This document shows positions 33,557-41,592 of a stretch of 64,000 bases of DNA, piece by piece; positions within the stretch are counted from its first letter, which is position 1; each line of letters starts with the position of its first letter. The translations under genes and the position numbers were made by a program. The stretch comes from an uncultured Bacteroidales bacterium. Lineage in GTDB: Bacteria > Bacteroidota > Bacteroidia > Bacteroidales > P3. Where the stretch lies: positions 72,724 to 136,723 of the forward strand of contig CAMIVE010000001.1 in assembly GCA_946401725.1 (NCBI GenBank), in the 5' to 3' direction. Below the pieces are notes generated by a model. It was given only the letters and a program-made list of their open reading frames with translations. It was not told the origin of the DNA and ran no database searches.

Positions 33557-34684
33557 ATGACCATTGGATTTGATGCAAAACGGGCTTTTCAGAACCGCAC
33601 CGGCTTAGGCAACTACAGCCGCATGGTTATCACCGCGCTTGCCACACAGCATCCCGAGGTCGACATCGTGCTTTTCACTCCCCGTCGCGAAGGGGATTTC
33701 GCCAATCATTTTGACTCTTTCCCGCAGGTTCGTATTGTCGAGCCCAACGGTTTATGGCGACTGATGCCATCCCTGTGGCGCACCCTGGCACTGGGTAGTG
33801 CCTGCCGATGCAACAACGTGGAGCTCTTCCATGGACTCAGTCATGAGCTCCCGCTCTTTATGCCCAAGAAGATTCGGCAGGTGGTCACGATGCACGACCT
33901 TATCGCCTGGCGCTACCCTCGTCAGTTCCATGCCGTGGACCGCATCATCTATCATCTCAAATTCCGCCATGCCTGCCGCCATGCCGACCGTGTTGTCGCC
34001 GTCAGCCAGCAGACCCGTCACGACCTCATCGAACGGCTTCATGTCCCTGAAGCAAAGATACAGGTAGTCTACCAATCGTGCGATCCCATCTTCTACCAGA
34101 CCGTCACCGATGCGCAATGCAACCAAGTGCGTCAACGCTACCAGCTACCCGAGCGCTACCTGATATGTATCGGCACCATCGAGCCACGCAAGAACCAAGT
34201 CGCCGCGGTACGTGCCCTGGCACTGCTCCCTGCCGACATCCATCTGGTCATTGTGGGACGTCGCACCGCATATTATGAAACCGTATTCCGTGCGGTCGAG
34301 GAATGCAACCTCCAGCAGCGCGTCCATTTCCTACGTGATGCCGCCTTTGCCGATTTTCCTGCACTTTACACCGCCGCCGAAGCCGCGCTTTATGTCTCAC
34401 TTTTCGAAGGGTTTGGCATCCCCGTGCTTGAAGCCCTCTGCTGCCAGACTCCTGTGGTGGCCGCCAACACCTCCTCGCTGCCCGAAGTAGGCGGCGATGC
34501 GGCCTGCTATGCCGACCCCAACAGTCCCAAGGATATTGCCGAACAGGTGAACAACCTATTGGAAAACGACACCCTGCGCAGCCAAATGCGTGAAGCCGCA
34601 GTGCGTCAGCGGGACAAATTCCTTCCTGAGCGTATCATTGCCGATTTGTACGCCATCTATAGTGGGCTTGCATATTCCACCTAG
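33557..34684 (+). CDS. Family 4 (GT-B, group 1) glycosyltransferase
   Basis: C-terminal EGFGIPVLEALCCQTPVVAANTSSLPEV, an E-x7-E type motif. Confidence 0.75.
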   Translation: MTIGFDAKRAFQNRTGLGNYSRMVITALATQHPEVDIVLFTPRREGDFANHFDSFPQVRIVEPNGLWRLMPSLWRTLALGSACRCNNVELFHGLSHELPLFMPKKIRQVVTMHDLIAWRYPRQFHAVDRIIYHLKFRHACRHADRVVAVSQQTRHDLIERLHVPEAKIQVVYQSCDPIFYQTVTDAQCNQVRQRYQLPERYLICIGTIEPRKNQVAAVRALALLPADIHLVIVGRRTAYYETVFRAVEECNLQQRVHFLRDAAFADFPALYTAAEAALYVSLFEGFGIPVLEALCCQTPVVAANTSSLPEVGGDAACYADPNSPKDIAEQVNNLLENDTLRSQMREAAVRQRDKFLPERIIADLYAIYSGLAYST

Positions 34685-34800
34685 ACATTACCCTGTTGCT
34701 CAATTTCTACAATACATCTACCTGTTTTCCAATAGACAAAAAGCAATTCTGTGATTACTGCAAGTGCAACATTCTCTCTTGCTTTCTCCCACACATCTGC

Positions 34801-34826
34801 AATAAGTGAGACAAGTTTCACTTATT
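34801..34826. other. Perfect 9-bp inverted repeat (AATAAGTGA-N8-TCACTTATT) in the left non-coding arm of the islet
   Basis: Read directly from the sequence. No clear U-tract follows on either strand. Confidence 0.4.
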
Positions 34827-35048
34827 CCGAATCGTCAGCTTATTGAACGCTTGATATTGTAGAAGGTAAAACGTTATTCATTGTCTTCCCTTCAATGCTC
34901 ATATTTTCTATAATTATTGTTTCTTATTTGTTAAAAAACAGCACATTCTCACATTGTATCATTTGATATTTCAATGTTAATTATTAGTGCATGTTTCAAT
35001 GTTTATTTCGGGTGCAAAGATACATTTATTCCATCAGTCACAAACCCT

Positions 35049-36644
35049 CTATGGTTCCAAAAAAACAGGTGCCCCATTCACATGATTGGGATGCTCTTCA
35101 TTAATTTTTTCAATCAGGCGAAGACTATTCTGATGGGATAAATCCAAGGTTGATACAGAAAGTTTAAATATCATATATGTCTTGCCTGGTTTTTGTGTTG
35201 GGTAACCTAATTTCTTTAGTTGTTGCCCCGACATTTCACAACATGATTTTATATTGTAAACCTGTTGCTTATTTGGGTGGTTAACATCGTATAATACAAG
35301 ATGCTCTGTTTTTTCAAACATAGCTAACTCGTCAAACATCGTACCTTTTCTTTTTCCTAATCTGATGTTGTAGATGCCCTGTTCCTGAATCCATTTCAGA
35401 TGCTTTTTGTTCTTGTAGCATCCCACCAAAATAGTCTTATCATCACCAATGAAATCAATTATTTGTTGGTTTGCCCCATTCCATTGATAATATTCGTAGT
35501 CTTCTGCAGCCTTAAGTATTTCTGACTTATCATTGATCGCGTATTTTATCACCGAGTTTTTTGTGCCGATTGATTCCTTGTACTGTGTATCCAAGACCTT
35601 ATTGTATGCTTTTCGCTCTATGTTAATTTCTTGCTTCAAACGAGCGATACACTGTTTCTTGATGGCACTGATGTAAGTTTCCATGAAGGAGTAGTCGACG
35701 GTTTTGCCATCATTTTTAACAGGAAGATACACTATATCCTTCTGAATCTTTGCTTTAGAAATAGAATCACCCCAAGAGTACTTTGGACTTAATGTCTTAT
35801 ATAGTGCGGCTACCATATAAAGTTGTGCCGATTCGTTACGTCCACTCCTATCATTCACAGTCAACACGAGATTGTGGCTGTCATTTGAAAAGAAGTCTCG
35901 TGGTTGATAAGTGATGACAAGTGTTTTACCACCTATTATGATGGAATTGCCATGCTCCATCAAGTCTGGTTTATAGGATATGTACGAAACGATAGAATTG
36001 TTACCTTCGCTAGCTGTTACGTATGGAGTGGTACCGCTGCCAAAGACAACATCTGACTTAAGTATATTATGGGAGTTAGCAACATTAAATTCCTTCACAA
36101 TATTAAACTTACGCATCTGTTTCTTCCCACATTCAATGGCATTCAATGCAAATTTCTCCCCCTTTGTCAAAGTGCAATCCTCGAATCCTGCCTCTTGAAG
36201 ATAGGCTTCGAGTTCGCGCACGCGCTCCTCTTCGAGTTCGCGCACGCGCTCCTCTTCGAGTTCGCGCACGCGCTCCTCGATAAAAATGAAATCAATTTTC
36301 CCTTTATTATTGACCGGGAGGACAATACTATCTTGTTCCATTTTTTCTTTAGTCCACTTAAAGGAATAACCATAGCCTTTCCCTTTTTTGATAAGCGGAG
36401 CTAAGAAAAATAGTGCAGATTGTTTTGTCATCACGAATTTGGGATAAAGGACATTTACGTCATCTGAAGCCCAAAAAGGTTCTGTTTGATAAAAGGCTTC
36501 ACCCACAGAGCCGTTATAAGTAACAGTAATTGTCCCCGCAGGATGTAAGCATTCTGAATTTCCGATTCTTGCCGTTAGTCCATTATTTGTAGAAGTTGCT
36601 CCAATAAAATTAATATCCCCAGGTATCATCTGAGCCTTGGTCAA
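35049..36644 (-). CDS. HsdS-like specificity subunit (two target-recognition domains) with an extra ~170-aa C-terminal domain
   Basis: There is an internal duplication. TRD1 reads ...IPGDINFIGATSTNNG...SIVLPVNNKGKIDFIFIEERV and TRD2 reads ...FGSGTTPYVTASEGNNS...DIVYLPVKNDGKTVDYSFMETYI, each followed by a helical spacer. The start is uncertain, because the track start is a TTG and the frame stays open upstream to 36800. Confidence 0.7.
   Translation of the reverse strand: MTKAQMIPGDINFIGATSTNNGLTARIGNSECLHPAGTITVTYNGSVGEAFYQTEPFWASDDVNVLYPKFVMTKQSALFFLAPLIKKGKGYGYSFKWTKEKMEQDSIVLPVNNKGKIDFIFIEERVRELEEERVRELEEERVRELEAYLQEAGFEDCTLTKGEKFALNAIECGKKQMRKFNIVKEFNVANSHNILKSDVVFGSGTTPYVTASEGNNSIVSYISYKPDLMEHGNSIIIGGKTLVITYQPRDFFSNDSHNLVLTVNDRSGRNESAQLYMVAALYKTLSPKYSWGDSISKAKIQKDIVYLPVKNDGKTVDYSFMETYISAIKKQCIARLKQEINIERKAYNKVLDTQYKESIGTKNSVIKYAINDKSEILKAAEDYEYYQWNGANQQIIDFIGDDKTILVGCYKNKKHLKWIQEQGIYNIRLGKRKGTMFDELAMFEKTEHLVLYDVNHPNKQQVYNIKSCCEMSGQQLKKLGYPTQKPGKTYMIFKLSVSTLDLSHQNSLRLIEKINEEHPNHVNGAPVFLEP
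36207..36278 (-). repeat. Perfect 3 x 24-bp tandem repeat encoding (EERVRELE)x3 in the central spacer helix of the S subunit
   Basis: TTCGAGTTCGCGCACGCGCTCCTC occurs three times without a mismatch (36207-36230, 36231-36254, 36255-36278). The unit is 16/24 G+C inside an AT-rich gene. Confidence 0.95.
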
Positions 36645-36733
36645 ACGCTTGCCTTTCTTTATTTCAAACAGACTGCCTATCTTGAAACTCCTGTATCCGC
36701 CCTCGGGTTCTTTCCATTTCCGCCGAGGGCTTG

Positions 36734-38833
36734 CTATTTTCCCAGGCCGCTTCCTCCTTCTTGCTTTATAACCTCGGATACTCGCCAGGCCAGATAATCT
36801 TTAACAACTTTGCGAAAGTCTTCTTCGGTTGGGATGGTCTCAATCTTTCTATGTTGTCCGTAGGTCCAGTCATTGCCGTCGAGTGTGATGTAGTCTTCAA
36901 TATATGAGCCATTAAGATAGTTTAGATTCTCGCCGTTCAATCCTTTCCCATATCGTACCAACTTCACCACCTCAGCGTATCGTTCACGGGCATTGTTGGT
37001 GTCGCGCAGGTTGACACTCTGGCTGGAGTGACGGCGGTTCATACGAGAATACCCATCCTCGGAGAAATCTATAAACTTGACTATAGATTCCTGAGCATGG
37101 GGCTTGTTCACTTCAAAGACATAAATAGCTGTCTGCACCGACGATTTACCGATGAACAAATCTATCGGCATCTTGATAGAGGCGACAAGAGTGTTGTTTT
37201 CCAGAATATCTTTCGTGTAAGGAAGACCGTTGCCACTGCCGGCGTTTTCTTGTATTAGAATGGCCGCCATTCCTCCATGGGTCATCATCGATAGGGCTTT
37301 CTTCACAAAGACAAAGCCTTTTCCATCTGCAGAATATGGCGGATTGAGTAGAAATACGGTTGCAGGGAAGTCCTTTCCTTTCATGTCTCCCTGCTCGTAT
37401 TCTCCATTAAACTGAGTGAGCGAATCGGCATGAATGATATTGGCAGAGCCGTCTTTCATCAGGATCATATTGAGTACAGCCAACAGATAGATGTCTGCCA
37501 ACTTCTCAATGCCCAACAATTGCTCTGTTTTGATATGTAGTATTTTCTCTGTTTTTGCTTTTGGGTTAGTAATCTTCTCTTGCGCATCGGCAATCATTAA
37601 ATGCATGGCGGAGATAAGGAAACCTGCGGAACCAGTGGCAAAATCCCATACATATGAATCTTTGTTAACCTGGCATAACCTTGCCATCAGTTCTGTGACA
37701 AAGCGTGGAGTAAGCACTACATCGTTTTCTGCACCATCAGGCACATCAACCCATGCATTAAGAACATTGAATAGTCGTCCTGTGAAGTCGAGGTTGTGCA
37801 ATTCGCCTGTCAAGAAAGGAATAATGTCGGCCTTGATGTCGCGGTAGAGTGTGCGTAGGTTGCTCTCCCCGTTCTTTGCTTCTTCAAGATGTGAATGCTG
37901 AAACACCACAGAAAGTATTTTTATTATCATGTCAATCTTCTCTGTGGGCAGTTTTTTGTATTTGAGATAGGACTTGATTTTTCGCATGATGACAGCGCCA
38001 TCGTTGTTCTCCTCGTCGGTGTCACCGTGAAGGTCATCCTCTTGAAGGGGCAATACCTTGTATTTGTCATCCTCTTTAACACCAAGGCCTGCCATGATAA
38101 GACCTGTGACTAGTTGTACTCGCTGATTGACCACAATCTGCAACTCGTCTTCCATCTTTTGATTCAAGTCTTTCAGCTTGCGCTCGATATCATCCTCCAG
38201 TTTTGACTTCTGTTGTTCTATCTCCTCATCAGACAGGCCTATATTGGCAATATTATTCAATAGATCCTTTTGGTGTTTTGGAATCAAAAATGAGAGGTCG
38301 CTATATTTAGCCATCTCTTTGGGTATAAATAAGTTCTGTCGGGAAATATACCATACACTGACCTCATATATCGTTCCAGATACAGATTCCTCGTAACCAT
38401 TAACCCCAATAGCTATTACCTCTTTGTAAGTAGTGTTGCGCAATATTGCATTTGCATAATGTACAGCTCCATTGACAGCATACTTAGCAATATTTGTATA
38501 ATTGGGTTCACCTTTCTTGGTTAGATTGTCCGGAAGTTTGCTGTCGTTATCACGCTTGATAAGAGCTCCCTTTGTTCCTTTGACTTCAATCATCACAGGA
38601 ATCTCACCATTGGGTGTCGAAAGTAGGCATTTAATATCGGGATAGTTGCCTCCGTCTTTTCCTGACTTTGATGGACTGGCCTTAAGAGCTTTCTCAATTT
38701 GTGGATTAATAAAGTCTGTCTTAGGGTAGAGCTTCACTCCTTTCAATTGCTCTTTTGCCCATTGTTCAACAGATTCTTCTATACTGCTGGTCTTTTTTGC
38801 CATATCTGTCTTTTGATTAAAATAGAACAACAT
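36734..38833 (-). CDS. Fused restriction endonuclease / N6-adenine DNA methyltransferase, BcgI-A-like (Type IIB/IIG architecture)
   Basis: N-terminal PD-x15-ExK-like motif (NYPDIKCLLSTPNGEIPVMIEVKGTK), SAM motif I (VWDFATGSAGFL) and motif IV NPPY (FLLNPPYSA). It sits directly upstream of an S-like gene. An alternative ATG lies at 38803 (MAKKTSS). Confidence 0.7.
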   Translation of the reverse strand: MLFYFNQKTDMAKKTSSIEESVEQWAKEQLKGVKLYPKTDFINPQIEKALKASPSKSGKDGGNYPDIKCLLSTPNGEIPVMIEVKGTKGALIKRDNDSKLPDNLTKKGEPNYTNIAKYAVNGAVHYANAILRNTTYKEVIAIGVNGYEESVSGTIYEVSVWYISRQNLFIPKEMAKYSDLSFLIPKHQKDLLNNIANIGLSDEEIEQQKSKLEDDIERKLKDLNQKMEDELQIVVNQRVQLVTGLIMAGLGVKEDDKYKVLPLQEDDLHGDTDEENNDGAVIMRKIKSYLKYKKLPTEKIDMIIKILSVVFQHSHLEEAKNGESNLRTLYRDIKADIIPFLTGELHNLDFTGRLFNVLNAWVDVPDGAENDVVLTPRFVTELMARLCQVNKDSYVWDFATGSAGFLISAMHLMIADAQEKITNPKAKTEKILHIKTEQLLGIEKLADIYLLAVLNMILMKDGSANIIHADSLTQFNGEYEQGDMKGKDFPATVFLLNPPYSADGKGFVFVKKALSMMTHGGMAAILIQENAGSGNGLPYTKDILENNTLVASIKMPIDLFIGKSSVQTAIYVFEVNKPHAQESIVKFIDFSEDGYSRMNRRHSSQSVNLRDTNNARERYAEVVKLVRYGKGLNGENLNYLNGSYIEDYITLDGNDWTYGQHRKIETIPTEEDFRKVVKDYLAWRVSEVIKQEGGSGLGK

Positions 38834-38848
38834 GCATTTTAGATATCC

Positions 38849-39592
38849 TCAGACAACCATCTTTCCTGGCATCTGTTGGATTACTTTACCCATCAGGAGT
38901 TTGCCGTTAGCGTGTTTGTTGCGTTTGATGCCATCGCTTCCCCAAGTACCCCATTGTTTGAAGAAGAAGGCGGCTCCTTGCTGTTCAACTTGCTGCTTGA
39001 TGTTGACCACCCACTCCAAAAGCATCGGACGAGCTTGGGGACCGCTCTCGCCTCCGACAATGACCCAATCTATACCATCAAGGTTCATTTCGCCCAAGTC
39101 TTCTATTAGCGGTTCGCATGAAAGGAACTTGATGCTTGCATCCAACTTGCGAAGGCAATCGATGCGCGTCTTAGTAGCTTCGCACTCAACTGTTACTCCC
39201 AACCAGACATTGAGGGGAATCAGCCTTGTGGAAAAATACTCAGCCATTCGTTCGGCACGTTTGGTAAGTATCTGGTAGCGGTGCTGTGGCGTCAGCATGA
39301 TAGTTCGCATAATTTTGTCGACAAACTCGAAAGGCACCTCCTCGTGGAAAATGTCACTCATGGAACAAACAAAGATGTTATGAGGCTTGCGCCATTGTAA
39401 CGGCTCTTTCAAGTCATCCTCATGCAGAGTTAATCCGAAGCCGTTGCGGTATTTTTCCAATCCCATGGCCTTTAATCGTCGTGCCATCACCTCTGCATAG
39501 CAGTGGGCGCAGCCCGCAGACTTCTTGTCACAACCAGTTATGGGATTCCATGTCTTATCGGTCCATTCTATTTTAGTCGTTTTGGTCGCCAT
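38849..39592 (-). CDS. DUF5131 / phage Gp37-Gp68 family three-Cys protein
   Basis: KIEWTDKTWNPITGC-x6-C-x2-CYA at the N-terminus, with later FLSCEPL, IDWVIVGGESGPQARP and FFFKQWG blocks, matching the PF07505 family as I remember it. Confidence 0.75.
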   Translation of the reverse strand: MATKTTKIEWTDKTWNPITGCDKKSAGCAHCYAEVMARRLKAMGLEKYRNGFGLTLHEDDLKEPLQWRKPHNIFVCSMSDIFHEEVPFEFVDKIMRTIMLTPQHRYQILTKRAERMAEYFSTRLIPLNVWLGVTVECEATKTRIDCLRKLDASIKFLSCEPLIEDLGEMNLDGIDWVIVGGESGPQARPMLLEWVVNIKQQVEQQGAAFFFKQWGTWGSDGIKRNKHANGKLLMGKVIQQMPGKMVV

Positions 39593-39594
39593 AA

Positions 39595-40539
39595 TTACTT
39601 GTTTATTATTTCGTGGGCTATCTTGACAGCACTGGAATTGTTGGATGCACAGGCAAAATGGAAGATGGGGGTGTTTCGAGTGTTGTACAGAACAAGCGGC
39701 TTTTCTGTAACATGCTTAAAAATGGTCCCCATCTGTTGAATGTACAATTCTGCAATCTTTTGGATAGGTTCCTTTACTTTCTCAACCACCTCAACAGCCC
39801 CGAATAGAGTCTTATCCACCCGGGTGTTGTAAAAGTATTCTTTCAAGAATGATTCGTCTTTTCCAAAGAAAGAGGTAAGTTTCTCTATATGTGTTAATTT
39901 GCATCTTCTATCAAGCAACCTATTCACAATCACTCCTGTGGGGATAAGAATCCACAAGTCAGTACCAGTATCCTTGAGTTTCTTGATAGACGTCCAATCA
40001 AGTTGCATTCCAAAGGGATCAAGCAGGACAAGAGATCTCAACTTGTTATTGTGATGCATGGCATTTGCAAGATTTACAACCTCGTCGTTGGCATTATTAT
40101 GACGGAATTCAATCTTTTTCCCATTACACAGGGGTTTTAATTTTGCCTCAAGTGCCTCATTGGATTTTTTATCAATGTCAACGAAATAATAGTAGTCGAA
40201 ACCCCTTTGTTTAATGTTCAACACACGTTCGGCTGCTCCTTGATAAGGAGCAAGTTCCTCGACGGAAATTCGATGTTCTTCCATCAAATTCATCATCACT
40301 TGGTTGTCTTCGGTGAGGGCTTCCACATTGCGAGAGCCACTGCCGGCGAACCCGTCAAAATATATCAGTTTCCACTGATACTGGTCACGATACTTATTCA
40401 TGATGGTGAGGTATGCTTTGACATACTTCTCGAAAGCATCCAGTTTTTCCTCCGTCCAAACACCACCCCATGAACTTTGTGGTTCGGAGATAGTTAAACA
40501 TTCCCGACACTCAGAATCCTCTTTATATGGCTTATTCAT
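39595..40539 (-). CDS. tcmP: TcmP-like 'three-Cys-motif partner' protein, with a putative Rossmann/SAM-methyltransferase-like fold
   Basis: 314 aa, ending 2 nt before the DUF5131 ATG. It has LIYFDGFAGSGS (motif-I-like FxGxG) and, ~100 aa later, LVLLDPFG (DPPY/DPPF-like). The pairing with DUF5131 matches the TIGR04474 description as I recall it. Confidence 0.6.
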   Translation of the reverse strand: MNKPYKEDSECRECLTISEPQSSWGGVWTEEKLDAFEKYVKAYLTIMNKYRDQYQWKLIYFDGFAGSGSRNVEALTEDNQVMMNLMEEHRISVEELAPYQGAAERVLNIKQRGFDYYYFVDIDKKSNEALEAKLKPLCNGKKIEFRHNNANDEVVNLANAMHHNNKLRSLVLLDPFGMQLDWTSIKKLKDTGTDLWILIPTGVIVNRLLDRRCKLTHIEKLTSFFGKDESFLKEYFYNTRVDKTLFGAVEVVEKVKEPIQKIAELYIQQMGTIFKHVTEKPLVLYNTRNTPIFHFACASNNSSAVKIAHEIINK

Positions 40540-40582
40540 ATTATAGTTTATTCTGTATGGAATAACTTACAATTTCAAACTG

Positions 40583-40590
40583 CAAAGATA
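40583..40590 (-). promoter_or_regulatory. Candidate -7 box TATCTTTG for the four-gene cluster
   Basis: The reverse complement of CAAAGATA matches TAnnTTTG, 44 nt upstream of the tcmP-like ATG at 40539. Confidence 0.45.
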
Positions 40591-40795
40591 TATATTTTTT
40601 CTGGAACAGCAAAATGTTTTTGACATAGGCAATTGGGAAGGCTTAAGGACTGCCGAGAGACCAAAGAAAGACCGCCGAAGAGTCGCGATATGATTATATC
40701 ACCGAAGGGGTGCTAAGAGAATATTGGAAGGACGTAAAAAATCTCATCAAATCAACATGGACTAACAGTCTATAACATTCTGCAACACGGACGAA

Positions 40796-40836
40796 TAAAA
40801 AACCGAAGGAATTTATTACTGTTTCCTTCGGTTTTC
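40796..40836 (-). terminator. Bidirectional rho-independent terminator
   Basis: CCGAAGGAA-N11-TTCCTTCGG (40803-40831) flanked by A7 and T4. It lies 26 nt below the stop of the 40857-41330 gene. Confidence 0.7.
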
Positions 40837-40856
40837 GGATTACTTTAAGGGATAGC

Positions 40857-41330
40857 TTAGAGATCTATCTCGTCGATGAATTTGTAATCGGCTTCGAAGT
40901 TCATGTAGCGCATGTTACGCCATTTCTTGGTGAAGAAACCTTTGCGTTTGCCAATCAGAACCTGATAGGTGGTTTTGTTTTTGATGTACAAAGCATAAAG
41001 CTCTTTGATGGTGTAGCCAGGATGCATGTCTTTAACGAGTTCGACAATGGCACGAGGATAGTATTTTTCTTCAACGTACCAACGAATTTCGGTACCTTTG
41101 GGAGAAAAACGATAGACTGTCAACGTACCGTTCTCACTCGTAAAACGAGCGTCATAAACCAAAGAGTCGACCATTTCCCATTTCACAGATTTTACATCAG
41201 ACAGCTGATTTTTGAAATCTTTCACATAACGTTCAGGGACATCTTTTTCAGAAACCGATTTGCCACTCTGTGCAAAGAGAACATTTTGACTCAGCAATAC
41301 AGCAATTGCCAATATAAATATCTTTCTCAT
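40857..41330 (-). CDS. Hypothetical periplasmic protein (possibly PepSY-like repeats)
   Basis: 157 aa with a signal peptide. It has a two-fold beta-rich repeat pattern and no catalytic motif. Confidence 0.5.
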   Translation of the reverse strand: MRKIFILAIAVLLSQNVLFAQSGKSVSEKDVPERYVKDFKNQLSDVKSVKWEMVDSLVYDARFTSENGTLTVYRFSPKGTEIRWYVEEKYYPRAIVELVKDMHPGYTIKELYALYIKNKTTYQVLIGKRKGFFTKKWRNMRYMNFEADYKFIDEIDL

Positions 41331-41592
41331 TTTTATTATTTTATGATGTTTCTATACTTTTTTTATTGATTCACAAAAATACAATTATTTTTAAAAAAAT
41401 TAAAGACTTTAACTAATTATTCTTGTTTTTAGTGATTGTAAAAAAAAGGTGATACGATGATTACTCGAGGTCGCGTCTCCCCGAGACGCATATAAGTCGT
41501 TGTTTTTTGTACCCCAGACTGCACTTCGTTTGTCTGGGGTTATTGAAATTATGTACCTTCGGCACATTATCGTTACGTGTTATTTTTTATCC

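Follow-up and report, generated by a model that had tools for sequence, protein, structure and literature searches.

A TcmP-DUF5131 gene pair in a Bacteroidales defence island: near-obligate pairing, separability from the neighbouring restriction-modification operon and a candidate SAM/radical-SAM activity

At one locus of an uncultured Bacteroidales bacterium, two adjacent genes precede a restriction-modification (RM) operon, which raises the question of whether they serve that RM system or constitute a module of their own, and of what the two proteins may do. The locus lies in a 64,000-nucleotide stretch of contig CAMIVE010000001.1 (positions 72,724 to 136,723), hereafter referred to as the window, and all coordinates below count from its first letter. 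An earlier note, made from these letters alone, had singled out the two genes as an undescribed DNA-modification or defence module. They are:

39595..40539, minus strand: ORF1, 314 amino acids, TcmP (three-Cys-motif partner protein), equivalent to PADLOC PDC-M41A
38849..39592, minus strand: ORF2, 247 amino acids, DUF5131 ('phage Gp37/Gp68'), equivalent to PADLOC PDC-M41B/M30B

On balance, we consider it probable that the pair is an autonomous, horizontally mobile two-subunit S-adenosylmethionine (SAM)/radical-SAM enzyme acting on DNA, located in a defence island and separable from the RM system. This reading starts from the family membership of the two proteins, their folds and conserved motifs, their near-obligate pairing, and their variable, defence-rich neighbourhoods.

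Family membership and predicted folds

Both proteins belong to curated families, in agreement with the memberships named in the earlier note. ORF1 scored 128.3 bits against TIGR04474 (TcmP; cut-off 53) and matched PADLOC PDC-M41A with an E-value of 4.7e-106. ORF2 scored 349.7 bits against PF07505 (cut-off 28.9; E 1e-104), with residues 5-242 covering model positions 1-243, and matched PDC-M41B (E 9.2e-114) and, equally well, PDC-M30B (E ~1e-113). The TIGR04474 definition combines a score above the NCBIfam cut-off with an adjacent PF07505 gene, and PDC-M41 is defined by adjacent A and B components on one strand; both arrangements are found here, with TIGR04474 and PF07505 each above its curated cut-off. 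By these profile matches, the pair is a further member of the TIGR04474 plus PF07505 partnership and of PDC-M41. Contrary to the earlier proposal, it is therefore not undescribed and is already catalogued, including its association with RM systems. The PDC systems of PADLOC (Payne et al., bioRxiv 10.1101/2024.01.29.577857) comprise 145 candidates, explicitly put forward without testing and derived by 'guilt-by-embedding' from cassettes inside BREX, DISARM and type I RM loci. As in PDC-M41 and PDC-M30, the genes at our locus are co-oriented, adjacent and beside an RM system; whereas the definition of PDC-M41 goes back to cassettes inside the three kinds of locus just named, the pair precedes here a type IIG/IIB-like operon of an RM gene and a specificity (S) gene, and is otherwise substantively alike. 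The locus itself is thus an ordinary one, a further copy of a catalogued candidate that adds little beyond an example. What our analysis adds to the catalogue is the fold of ORF1 with its DP[F/Y]G motif, the alignment of the ORF2 cluster motif, the pairing frequency across loci, the lack of a conserved third gene and the separability from the RM genes.

ORF1 contains the sequences FDGFAGSGS (residues 61-69) and LLDPFG (residues 172-177), in which we read motif I (YFDGFAGSG) and, at the position of motif IV, DPFG; a GDAN-like motif is also present. To assess the folds, we used single-chain AlphaFold2 (AF2) models built from shallow alignments and compared them with the PDB by Foldseek. The ORF1 model (predicted local distance difference test score, pLDDT, 74; predicted template modelling score, pTM, 0.74) gave 37 PDB matches with E<=1e-3, 36 of which are class I SAM-dependent enzymes, mostly methyltransferases, the sole exception being the plant RGA-GID1A complex at rank 32. 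The matches include Trm1 (3axs), RlmJ (6qe5), EgtD, KsgA, TYW4 and spermidine synthase, and the highest template modelling (TM) score was that of RlmJ 6qe5 (0.42/0.47). The Rossmann-like fold of the model, together with the glycine-rich motif I, makes ORF1 a predicted class I SAM-dependent methyltransferase. At the sequence level, a profile built from 102 diverse TcmP sequences matched the RsmD-like methylase 2fhp in the PDB (E 0.005) and gave a weak match to 2oo3, a homologue of RlmJ, and RsmD models appeared below their curated cut-offs in hidden Markov model (HMM) scans of ORF1. A PDB search with the ORF1 sequence itself returned a single marginal, unrelated match (E 0.16), and a fold search of BFVD returned generic methyltransferases only.

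Within the TcmP family (30-70% identity), G66, D174 and P175 are invariant, and D62, F64, A65, G68, N151, F172 and G177 are at least 90% conserved; across the wider partner superfamily (68 sequences), D62, F64, G66, G68 and D174 are conserved. Because motif I (D-x-F-A-G-x-G), the GDAN motif and the family consensus FLDPFG are all retained, the SAM pocket of ORF1 looks intact. ORF1 shares with the exocyclic-amine methyltransferases of the RsmD/RlmJ/Trm1 type the class I fold, the D-x-F-A-G-x-G form of motif I, an acidic residue ending strand 2 and an Asp-Pro motif following strand 4. It differs from them in a ~30-residue insertion past motif I, in a conserved N-terminal helix (W28, T29, K32, Y39) and in having DP[F/Y]G where they have (D/N)PP(Y/F). 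The methyltransferase motifs claimed for ORF1 in the earlier note hold as far as the fold, the intact motif I and the location of DPFG at the motif-IV position are concerned, but the canonical amino-methyltransferase motif IV, (D/N/S)PP(Y/F/W), is not present; the site carries a related motif, DPFG in the TcmP family and DPYG in PDC-M30A. Trm1 enzymes also carry DPFG, a likeness that a PDB search with the segment left unconfirmed, its only match being irrelevant.

ORF2 contains WNPITGC-x6-C-x2-CYA (C21, C28 and C31), SCEPL (residues 158-162) and VGGESGP (residues 179-185). In an alignment of 79 DUF5131 sequences, the three cysteines are 100% conserved, as are SMxD (77-80), LTKR (109-112), ExPL (160-162), GGESG (180-184) and FFKQWG. 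The AF2 model of ORF2, a putative partial barrel, has six beta-alpha units, and spore photoproduct lyase takes each of the first six places among its PDB matches (E 1e-3 to 1e-2, probability >=0.99). We then aligned the 79-sequence DUF5131 profile, by hhalign in local mode, with a PF04055-positive family that adjoins the pair in three loci (E 1.4e-4, 198 columns), which set NPITGCDKKSAGCAHCYA opposite NPYAGCE---HGCIYCYA. Since the two cluster motifs align with a three-residue gap, the CX6CX2C of ORF2 is, on this alignment, the canonical CX3CX2C extended by three inserted residues. ORF2 would accordingly carry a family-wide three-Cys motif of the [4Fe-4S] type, as expected of a radical-SAM protein, with non-canonical spacing. 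RadicalSAM.org places DUF5131 in Megacluster-5-2, next to the spore photoproduct lyases (5-3) and the MJ0683-like proteins (5-1). The radical-SAM likeness proposed in the earlier note is backed by the cluster alignment, by this subgroup and, weakly, by the fold matches. ORF2 also gave a sub-threshold match to TIGR04471 rSAM_mob_pairA (94.6 bits against a cut-off of 355). A PDB search with the ORF2 sequence yielded zero matches, an eight-sequence DUF5131 profile gave noise only, and hhalign of DUF5131 against the HydE-like radical-SAM protein encoded in the window itself gave a probability of 0.6%.

The likeness of ORF2 is thus to the branch formed by spore photoproduct lyase, its best structural match, and the COG1533/MJ0683-like 'DNA repair photolyase' proteins, which share its N-P-x-x-G-C...G-C-x-x-C-Y-A cluster motif and its RadicalSAM.org megacluster. 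We rejected the possibility that ORF2 is a true spore photoproduct lyase, given its CX6CX2C instead of CX3CX2C, the 10-13% identity and the empty PDB sequence search; the relation is one of fold resemblance and not of membership. ORF2 is moreover ~100 residues shorter and, unlike spore photoproduct lyase, which is not known to require a methyltransferase-fold partner, appears to need one. The comparison of VGGESGP with the SAM-binding GGE motif of radical-SAM enzymes, also put forward earlier, is weak, as that motif usually lies just past the cluster loop, whereas GGESG (180-184) comes late in the predicted barrel of ORF2, on one of its final strands.

Pairing and neighbourhoods across genomes and phages

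To gain insight into how constant the partnership is, we surveyed one genome per GTDB species, anchoring the search on DUF5131; a relative is present in at least 585 species. The best 80 of these loci come from Bacteroidota, Pseudomonadota, Chloroflexota, Planctomycetota, Actinomycetota, Nitrospirota and one Methanoregula, and partners were counted over 78 of them with our own ORF calls and purpose-built HMMs. A gene of the TcmP superfamily directly adjoins DUF5131 in 68 of the 78 loci (19 of the TcmP type and 49 of the longer PDC-M30A type), mostly upstream of it and with a 4-nt overlap; four of the ten partnerless DUF5131 genes are located at contig ends. The pairing of TcmP and DUF5131 is far beyond chance and near-obligate. 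The likeness of the PDC-M30A-type partner to TcmP (hhalign probability 95%) is confined to roughly the first 170 residues, in which D-x-F-C-G-x-G and DPYG are found. The M30A-type partner also shows a winged helix-turn-helix match below the Pfam cut-off, a weak pointer to DNA binding. The short calls in L111, L112 and L114 (a 233-amino-acid TcmP and a 170-amino-acid DUF5131) were considered as pseudogenes and rejected, as translation gives intact ORFs and the short calls are therefore artefacts of start-codon calling. In Sinorhizobium meliloti, the TcmP gene SMa2243 is, together with the Hna defence helicase gene SMa2245, among the genes upregulated in a nolR+ strain (PMC12445080).

A protein search with ORF2 returned at least 8000 close relatives, and phage records contain DUF5131 in 180 cases and TcmP in two. 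In Gordonia phages, DUF5131 and a convergent M30A-like 'methyltransferase' gene lie between the integrase and immunity-repressor genes, that is, in the lysogeny module, a typical site of prophage-encoded defence genes. The phage proteins after which the family is named, phiE125 gp37 (330 amino acids) and Che9c gp68 (386 amino acids), are 32-34% identical to ORF2, longer, and without a detectable TcmP-type partner. We examined gp38 of phiE125, which overlaps gp37, as a candidate partner and rejected it (hhalign probability 0.1%; PADLOC and Pfam searches empty), so that there is no basis for extending the pairing to the phages that gave the family its name.

No conserved third gene was found beside the pair among the 78 loci, the largest cluster of neighbours having three members. 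The company that the pair keeps is nevertheless often defensive, several of the defence genes being operonic with it, as in the following gene orders:

L037: hsdS, pair
L052: hsdS, pair, hsdR
L081: pair, hsdR (8-nt overlap)
L025: 1327-amino-acid type IIG enzyme, pair
L031: ABC/SMC ATPase, pair
L001 (Bacteroidales): pair, GmrSD
L009 (Bacteroidales): AbiGi, pair
L104 (Bacteroidales): pair, SLFN-like helicase, UvrD/DEAD helicase
L105 (Bacteroidales): pair, NmeDI-like and PDDEXK nucleases
L106 (Bacteroidales): MutH-type restriction endonuclease (REase)/C5-methyltransferase, pair, RhuM, Fic, YhcG

In Bacteroidales, all of the distinct contexts examined are defence contexts. The expectation that the pair would recur beside RM and other defence genes, and in the lysogeny modules of temperate phages, was therefore confirmed by the neighbourhoods.

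Other associations were restricted to small sets of loci. In three Burkholderiales genomes, a LexA/CI-like Peptidase_S24 gene (213-230 amino acids) directly precedes DUF5131, with an M30A-like partner downstream (L042:7360-8001, L047:7336-8001 and L054:7287-7979); the Peptidase_S24 gene and DUF5131 overlap by 4 nt in L042 and L047 and are 18 nt apart in L054. Through this neighbour, the pair may be tied to signals of the SOS response or of prophage induction. In Ferruginibacter-type loci (L061:5995-7104, L067:5854-7086 and L070:5967-7079), a canonical SplB-like radical-SAM gene (PF04055, CX3CX2C) is immediately upstream of TcmP-DUF5131, and an AP_endonuc_2 gene (endonuclease IV/xylose-isomerase-like) occurs downstream in L067 (8763-9680) and L087 (1787-2707). 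Finally, an 89-amino-acid DUF5131 fragment (1256-1525) immediately precedes RhuM-YhcG in L110, and a complete pair-RM-S block comes after these genes; in L106 (L106-L109 were used for comparison), an intact pair stands ahead of RhuM-Fic-YhcG. These islands have the look of '[pair]-[cargo]' units set in series, and the pair genes may therefore act as recombination anchors for cargo swapping.

Proposed activity and competing explanations

If the favoured reading is right, ORF1 would be the SAM-binding subunit, with a class I methyltransferase fold akin to that of nucleic-acid amino-methyltransferases (RsmD, RlmJ and Trm1 type), and would recognise a nucleic-acid target and present a base. ORF2 would be the radical-SAM subunit, from the spore-photoproduct-lyase/'DNA repair photolyase' branch, whose characterised members act on DNA; it would bind a [4Fe-4S] cluster on C21, C28 and C31, cleave SAM to generate a 5'-deoxyadenosyl radical and carry out hydrogen-abstraction chemistry on DNA. 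The two proteins would be translationally coupled and act together, presumably as a complex, and the cassette, as part of a low-GC defence island, would share its promoter with the type IIG/IIB-like RM-S module. The most likely role is an accessory defence against phages or other mobile genetic elements (MGEs), or else a DNA modification that benefits mobile elements. We also put forward, tentatively and as a rather unlikely combination, a fuller scenario in which a base-flipping, methyltransferase-fold ORF1 hands a DNA base to the spore-photoproduct-lyase-like ORF2, producing an undescribed DNA modification or lesion (anti-phage, or for restriction evasion by MGEs), while the pair genes perhaps serve as homologous-recombination anchors for cargo swaps in Bacteroidales (RM-S, GmrSD, RhuM-Fic-YhcG).

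DUF5131 and its partners are very common, as the counts of relatives, species and phage records given above indicate, and the function of such a pair is an experimentally tractable question. Were it a radical-SAM enzyme acting on DNA, it would represent new chemistry for DNA modification or anti-phage immunity, and would account for a recurrent passenger of RM, BREX and DISARM loci.

Several observations weigh against this reading. The ORF2 model is of mediocre quality (pLDDT 65, and below 50 in the Cys loop), it matches the fold of spore photoproduct lyase only weakly (TM 0.41-0.45), the hhalign probability for DUF5131 against the PF04055-positive family is just 52%, and the Pfam Radical_SAM model PF04055 does not match ORF2, for which PF07505 alone is reported. 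As motif IV of ORF1 is DPFG and not (D/N/S)PP(Y/F), its methyl transfer may be lost or altered. Distant phage DUF5131 proteins (Che9c gp68, TChen gp66, RR1-A and phiE125 gp37) are without a detectable partner, and the genes of Che9c, TChen and RR1-A are located among replication or DNA-metabolism genes, a context as consistent with DNA metabolism or repair as with defence. Across phyla, the immediate neighbours are mostly without recognisable defence identity; in a pooled PADLOC scan, 257 models were matched in 142 immediate neighbours and 57 in 142 genes at least five positions off, but this comparison is crude, being inflated by ~90 redundant S-subunit models per S protein and counted per family only, and we therefore take the enrichment as qualitative. 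In addition, full-text literature on DUF5131, TcmP, Gp37Gp68, PDC-M41 and PDC-M30 yielded annotation-level mentions, and biochemistry or experiment on any member was not found.

The least improbable of the alternatives is that the pair is a DNA-repair or DNA-metabolism enzyme, one that might reverse a lesion or an alien modification in the manner of spore photoproduct lyase and that serves phages or MGEs, its position in defence islands being a matter of hitch-hiking. The closest solved fold to ORF2 is indeed a direct-reversal DNA repair enzyme, the homologues of mycobacteriophages and Rhizobium phage are surrounded by genes for replication, recombination and DNA methylases, some loci add the second, SplB-like radical-SAM gene and the AP_endonuc_2 gene, and in some Burkholderiales loci the LexA/CI-like Peptidase_S24 gene is in the same operon. 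However, the distribution of the pair is sporadic and island-borne, its operons are repeatedly shared with restriction and abortive-infection genes, the Gordonia phage copies occupy the lysogeny module, and features that are conserved in spore photoproduct lyase, CX3CX2C among them, are absent. We consider this explanation unlikely.

A further possibility concerns the RM genes next to the pair, for which the relevant features are as follows:

36734..38803, minus strand: REase-methyltransferase fusion gene, 689 amino acids from the MAKK start (alternative in-frame ATG at 38833)
35049..36644, minus strand: S subunit gene, 531 amino acids, two target-recognition domains; part of the RM module and outside the pair
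40583..40613, minus strand: putative Bacteroidetes-type promoter, TTTG (-33), 19-nt spacer, TATCTTTG (-7), read from the sequence
34700..41500, no strand: low-GC island, from the composition profile and the annotation of its flanks

The RM gene matched PADLOC REase_MTase_IIG (E 3.5e-178) and Pfam N6_Mtase, and the S subunit matched Pfam Methylase_S (E 5e-23) and PADLOC Specificity_II (E 2e-30). PADLOC assigns type IIG; the combination of an REase-methyltransferase fusion with a separate S subunit has the BcgI-like type IIB architecture, in line with the earlier description of these genes. One could suppose that the pair is a functional accessory of this system, placing a second DNA mark for self-protection or tuning restriction, and that the four genes form one system. 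They lie close together on one strand behind a single promoter-like site, and the junctions between them are free of promoter or terminator consensus sequences. An RM homologue with 96% identity keeps the pair-RM-S order in 19 contigs, and in other phyla the pair occurs between hsdS and hsdR or beside a type IIG enzyme. On the other side, the RM protein has its own N6-methyltransferase domain and its own S subunit, and an 80%-identical RM homologue (46 collection blocks) has S and Fic genes and lacks the pair. Beside close relatives of the pair, GmrSD, AbiGi, helicases, RhuM or Fic are found instead, and GmrSD, from a family annotated as type IV and modification-dependent, would need no companion modification; nor is the type of RM system beside the pair conserved.

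The pair and the RM gene also differ in their histories of divergence. Compared with the locus of the 96% homologue (L110:5800-6000), the RM gene shows 86-95% nucleotide identity and the pair 61-79%, and the jump in identity is a mosaic break at the ORF2/RM junction, at ~38836-38985 (about 38.85-38.99 kb), so that the two modules recombine independently. The S target-recognition domains are unrelated to those of the same locus (43-47%). Given the RM-S operon without the pair, the relatives of the pair with other cargo and the lack of a conserved third gene, the link to the RM system is not obligatory, and the suggestion of a second epigenetic mark for the adjacent RM system is consequently left with no specific support. 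As far as these comparisons indicate, the pair does not look like a dedicated component of the adjacent RM system and appears to be a separable module, whose position reflects the defence island and not a new four-gene system. Among the alternatives, the data count most heavily against an RM accessory, which we regard as distinctly improbable.

Less probable still is the explanation that the pair modifies RNA (tRNA or rRNA), like the methyltransferase and radical-SAM step of wyosine/archaeosine-type pathways, with any defence exerted via translation: ORF1 has its nearest kin, in sequence as in structure, among RNA methyltransferases (RsmD-like 2fhp, RlmJ, Trm1) and some phage records label the DUF5131 gene 'RNA methyltransferase', but such labels are no evidence, the nearest relatives of ORF2 act on DNA, the PDC-M30A partner has the weak winged helix-turn-helix match, and the genomic company consists of DNA-targeting systems.

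Layout of the locus and its island

The reading frames, peptide motifs and promoter box listed in the earlier note are all present in the window. The ORF1 stop codon (TAA, 39597-39595) is followed by 'TT' and by the ORF2 ATG (39592-39590), leaving a 2-nt gap. The 15-nt gap reported between ORF2 and the RM gene is correct if counted from the ORF2 stop to the first in-frame ATG (38833), but becomes 45 nt from the MAKK start (38803, 689 amino acids) that is the form in the public protein collection.

Upstream of the pair, TATCTTTG lies at 40590-40583, the end of this -7 box being 43 nt upstream of the ORF1 ATG. By itself, the -7 box TAnnTTTG is no commoner than chance in the window (36 found, 30.7 expected). 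The composite TTTG-N18-22-TAnnTTTG is above chance (6 against 0.95 expected, with none of 100 shuffles reaching 6), and one of its six copies is the one directly upstream of ORF1 (40583-40613, minus strand), which we infer to work as a promoter. From this site to the S stop codon, minus-strand TAnnTTTG occurs in no gene junction, its only two copies (37157 and 35315) being inside the RM and S coding sequences. A single terminator-like minus-strand site was found in the region (36634-36618, inside the S gene), and none between ORF1 and the RM gene. With no box in the junctions and no terminator-like site from ORF1 to the RM gene, one transcript across the pair, RM and S genes is plausible.

The island spans ~6.8 kb with ~35-49% GC, against 52-60% in most of the flanking sequence, and is flanked by a GT4 glycosyltransferase gene and a SpoU methylase gene; exact-sequence searches with ORF1 and with these two flanking genes gave no match. 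It contains the pair, the RM-S genes, a 157-amino-acid ORF and a nuclease-gene remnant. The 157-amino-acid ORF (40857-41330, minus strand) is upstream of the pair promoter; its N-terminus is signal-peptide-like, and Pfam gave no match. A second Bacteroidetes-type promoter sequence, TTTG-N18-TATCTTTG, lies at 35015-35044 (minus strand), just beyond the S stop codon. It is followed by a 46-amino-acid ORF (34681-34821, minus strand) that matches the first 38 positions of DUF1016_N only (E 6e-5, below the cut-off) and looks like the remnant of a truncated YhcG/PDDEXK nuclease at the edge of the island; in the related islands L106 and L110, the YhcG genes are intact. A search of Rfam for RNA families in the 34-42 kb region gave zero matches.

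The S gene has two further features. At 36206-36278 (minus strand), three perfect 24-nt tandem repeats encode three copies of EERVRELE in the central spacer between the target-recognition domains. In EcoR124I and EcoR124II, the number of TAEL repeats sets a spacer length that alters recognition, and by analogy slippage of the repeats could change the length of the S spacer and hence the recognition sequence. The C-terminal 153 amino acids (35049-35510), which extend ~150 residues past the second target-recognition domain, have no Pfam match; the related S genes called in L110-L114 encode proteins of 441-521 amino acids.

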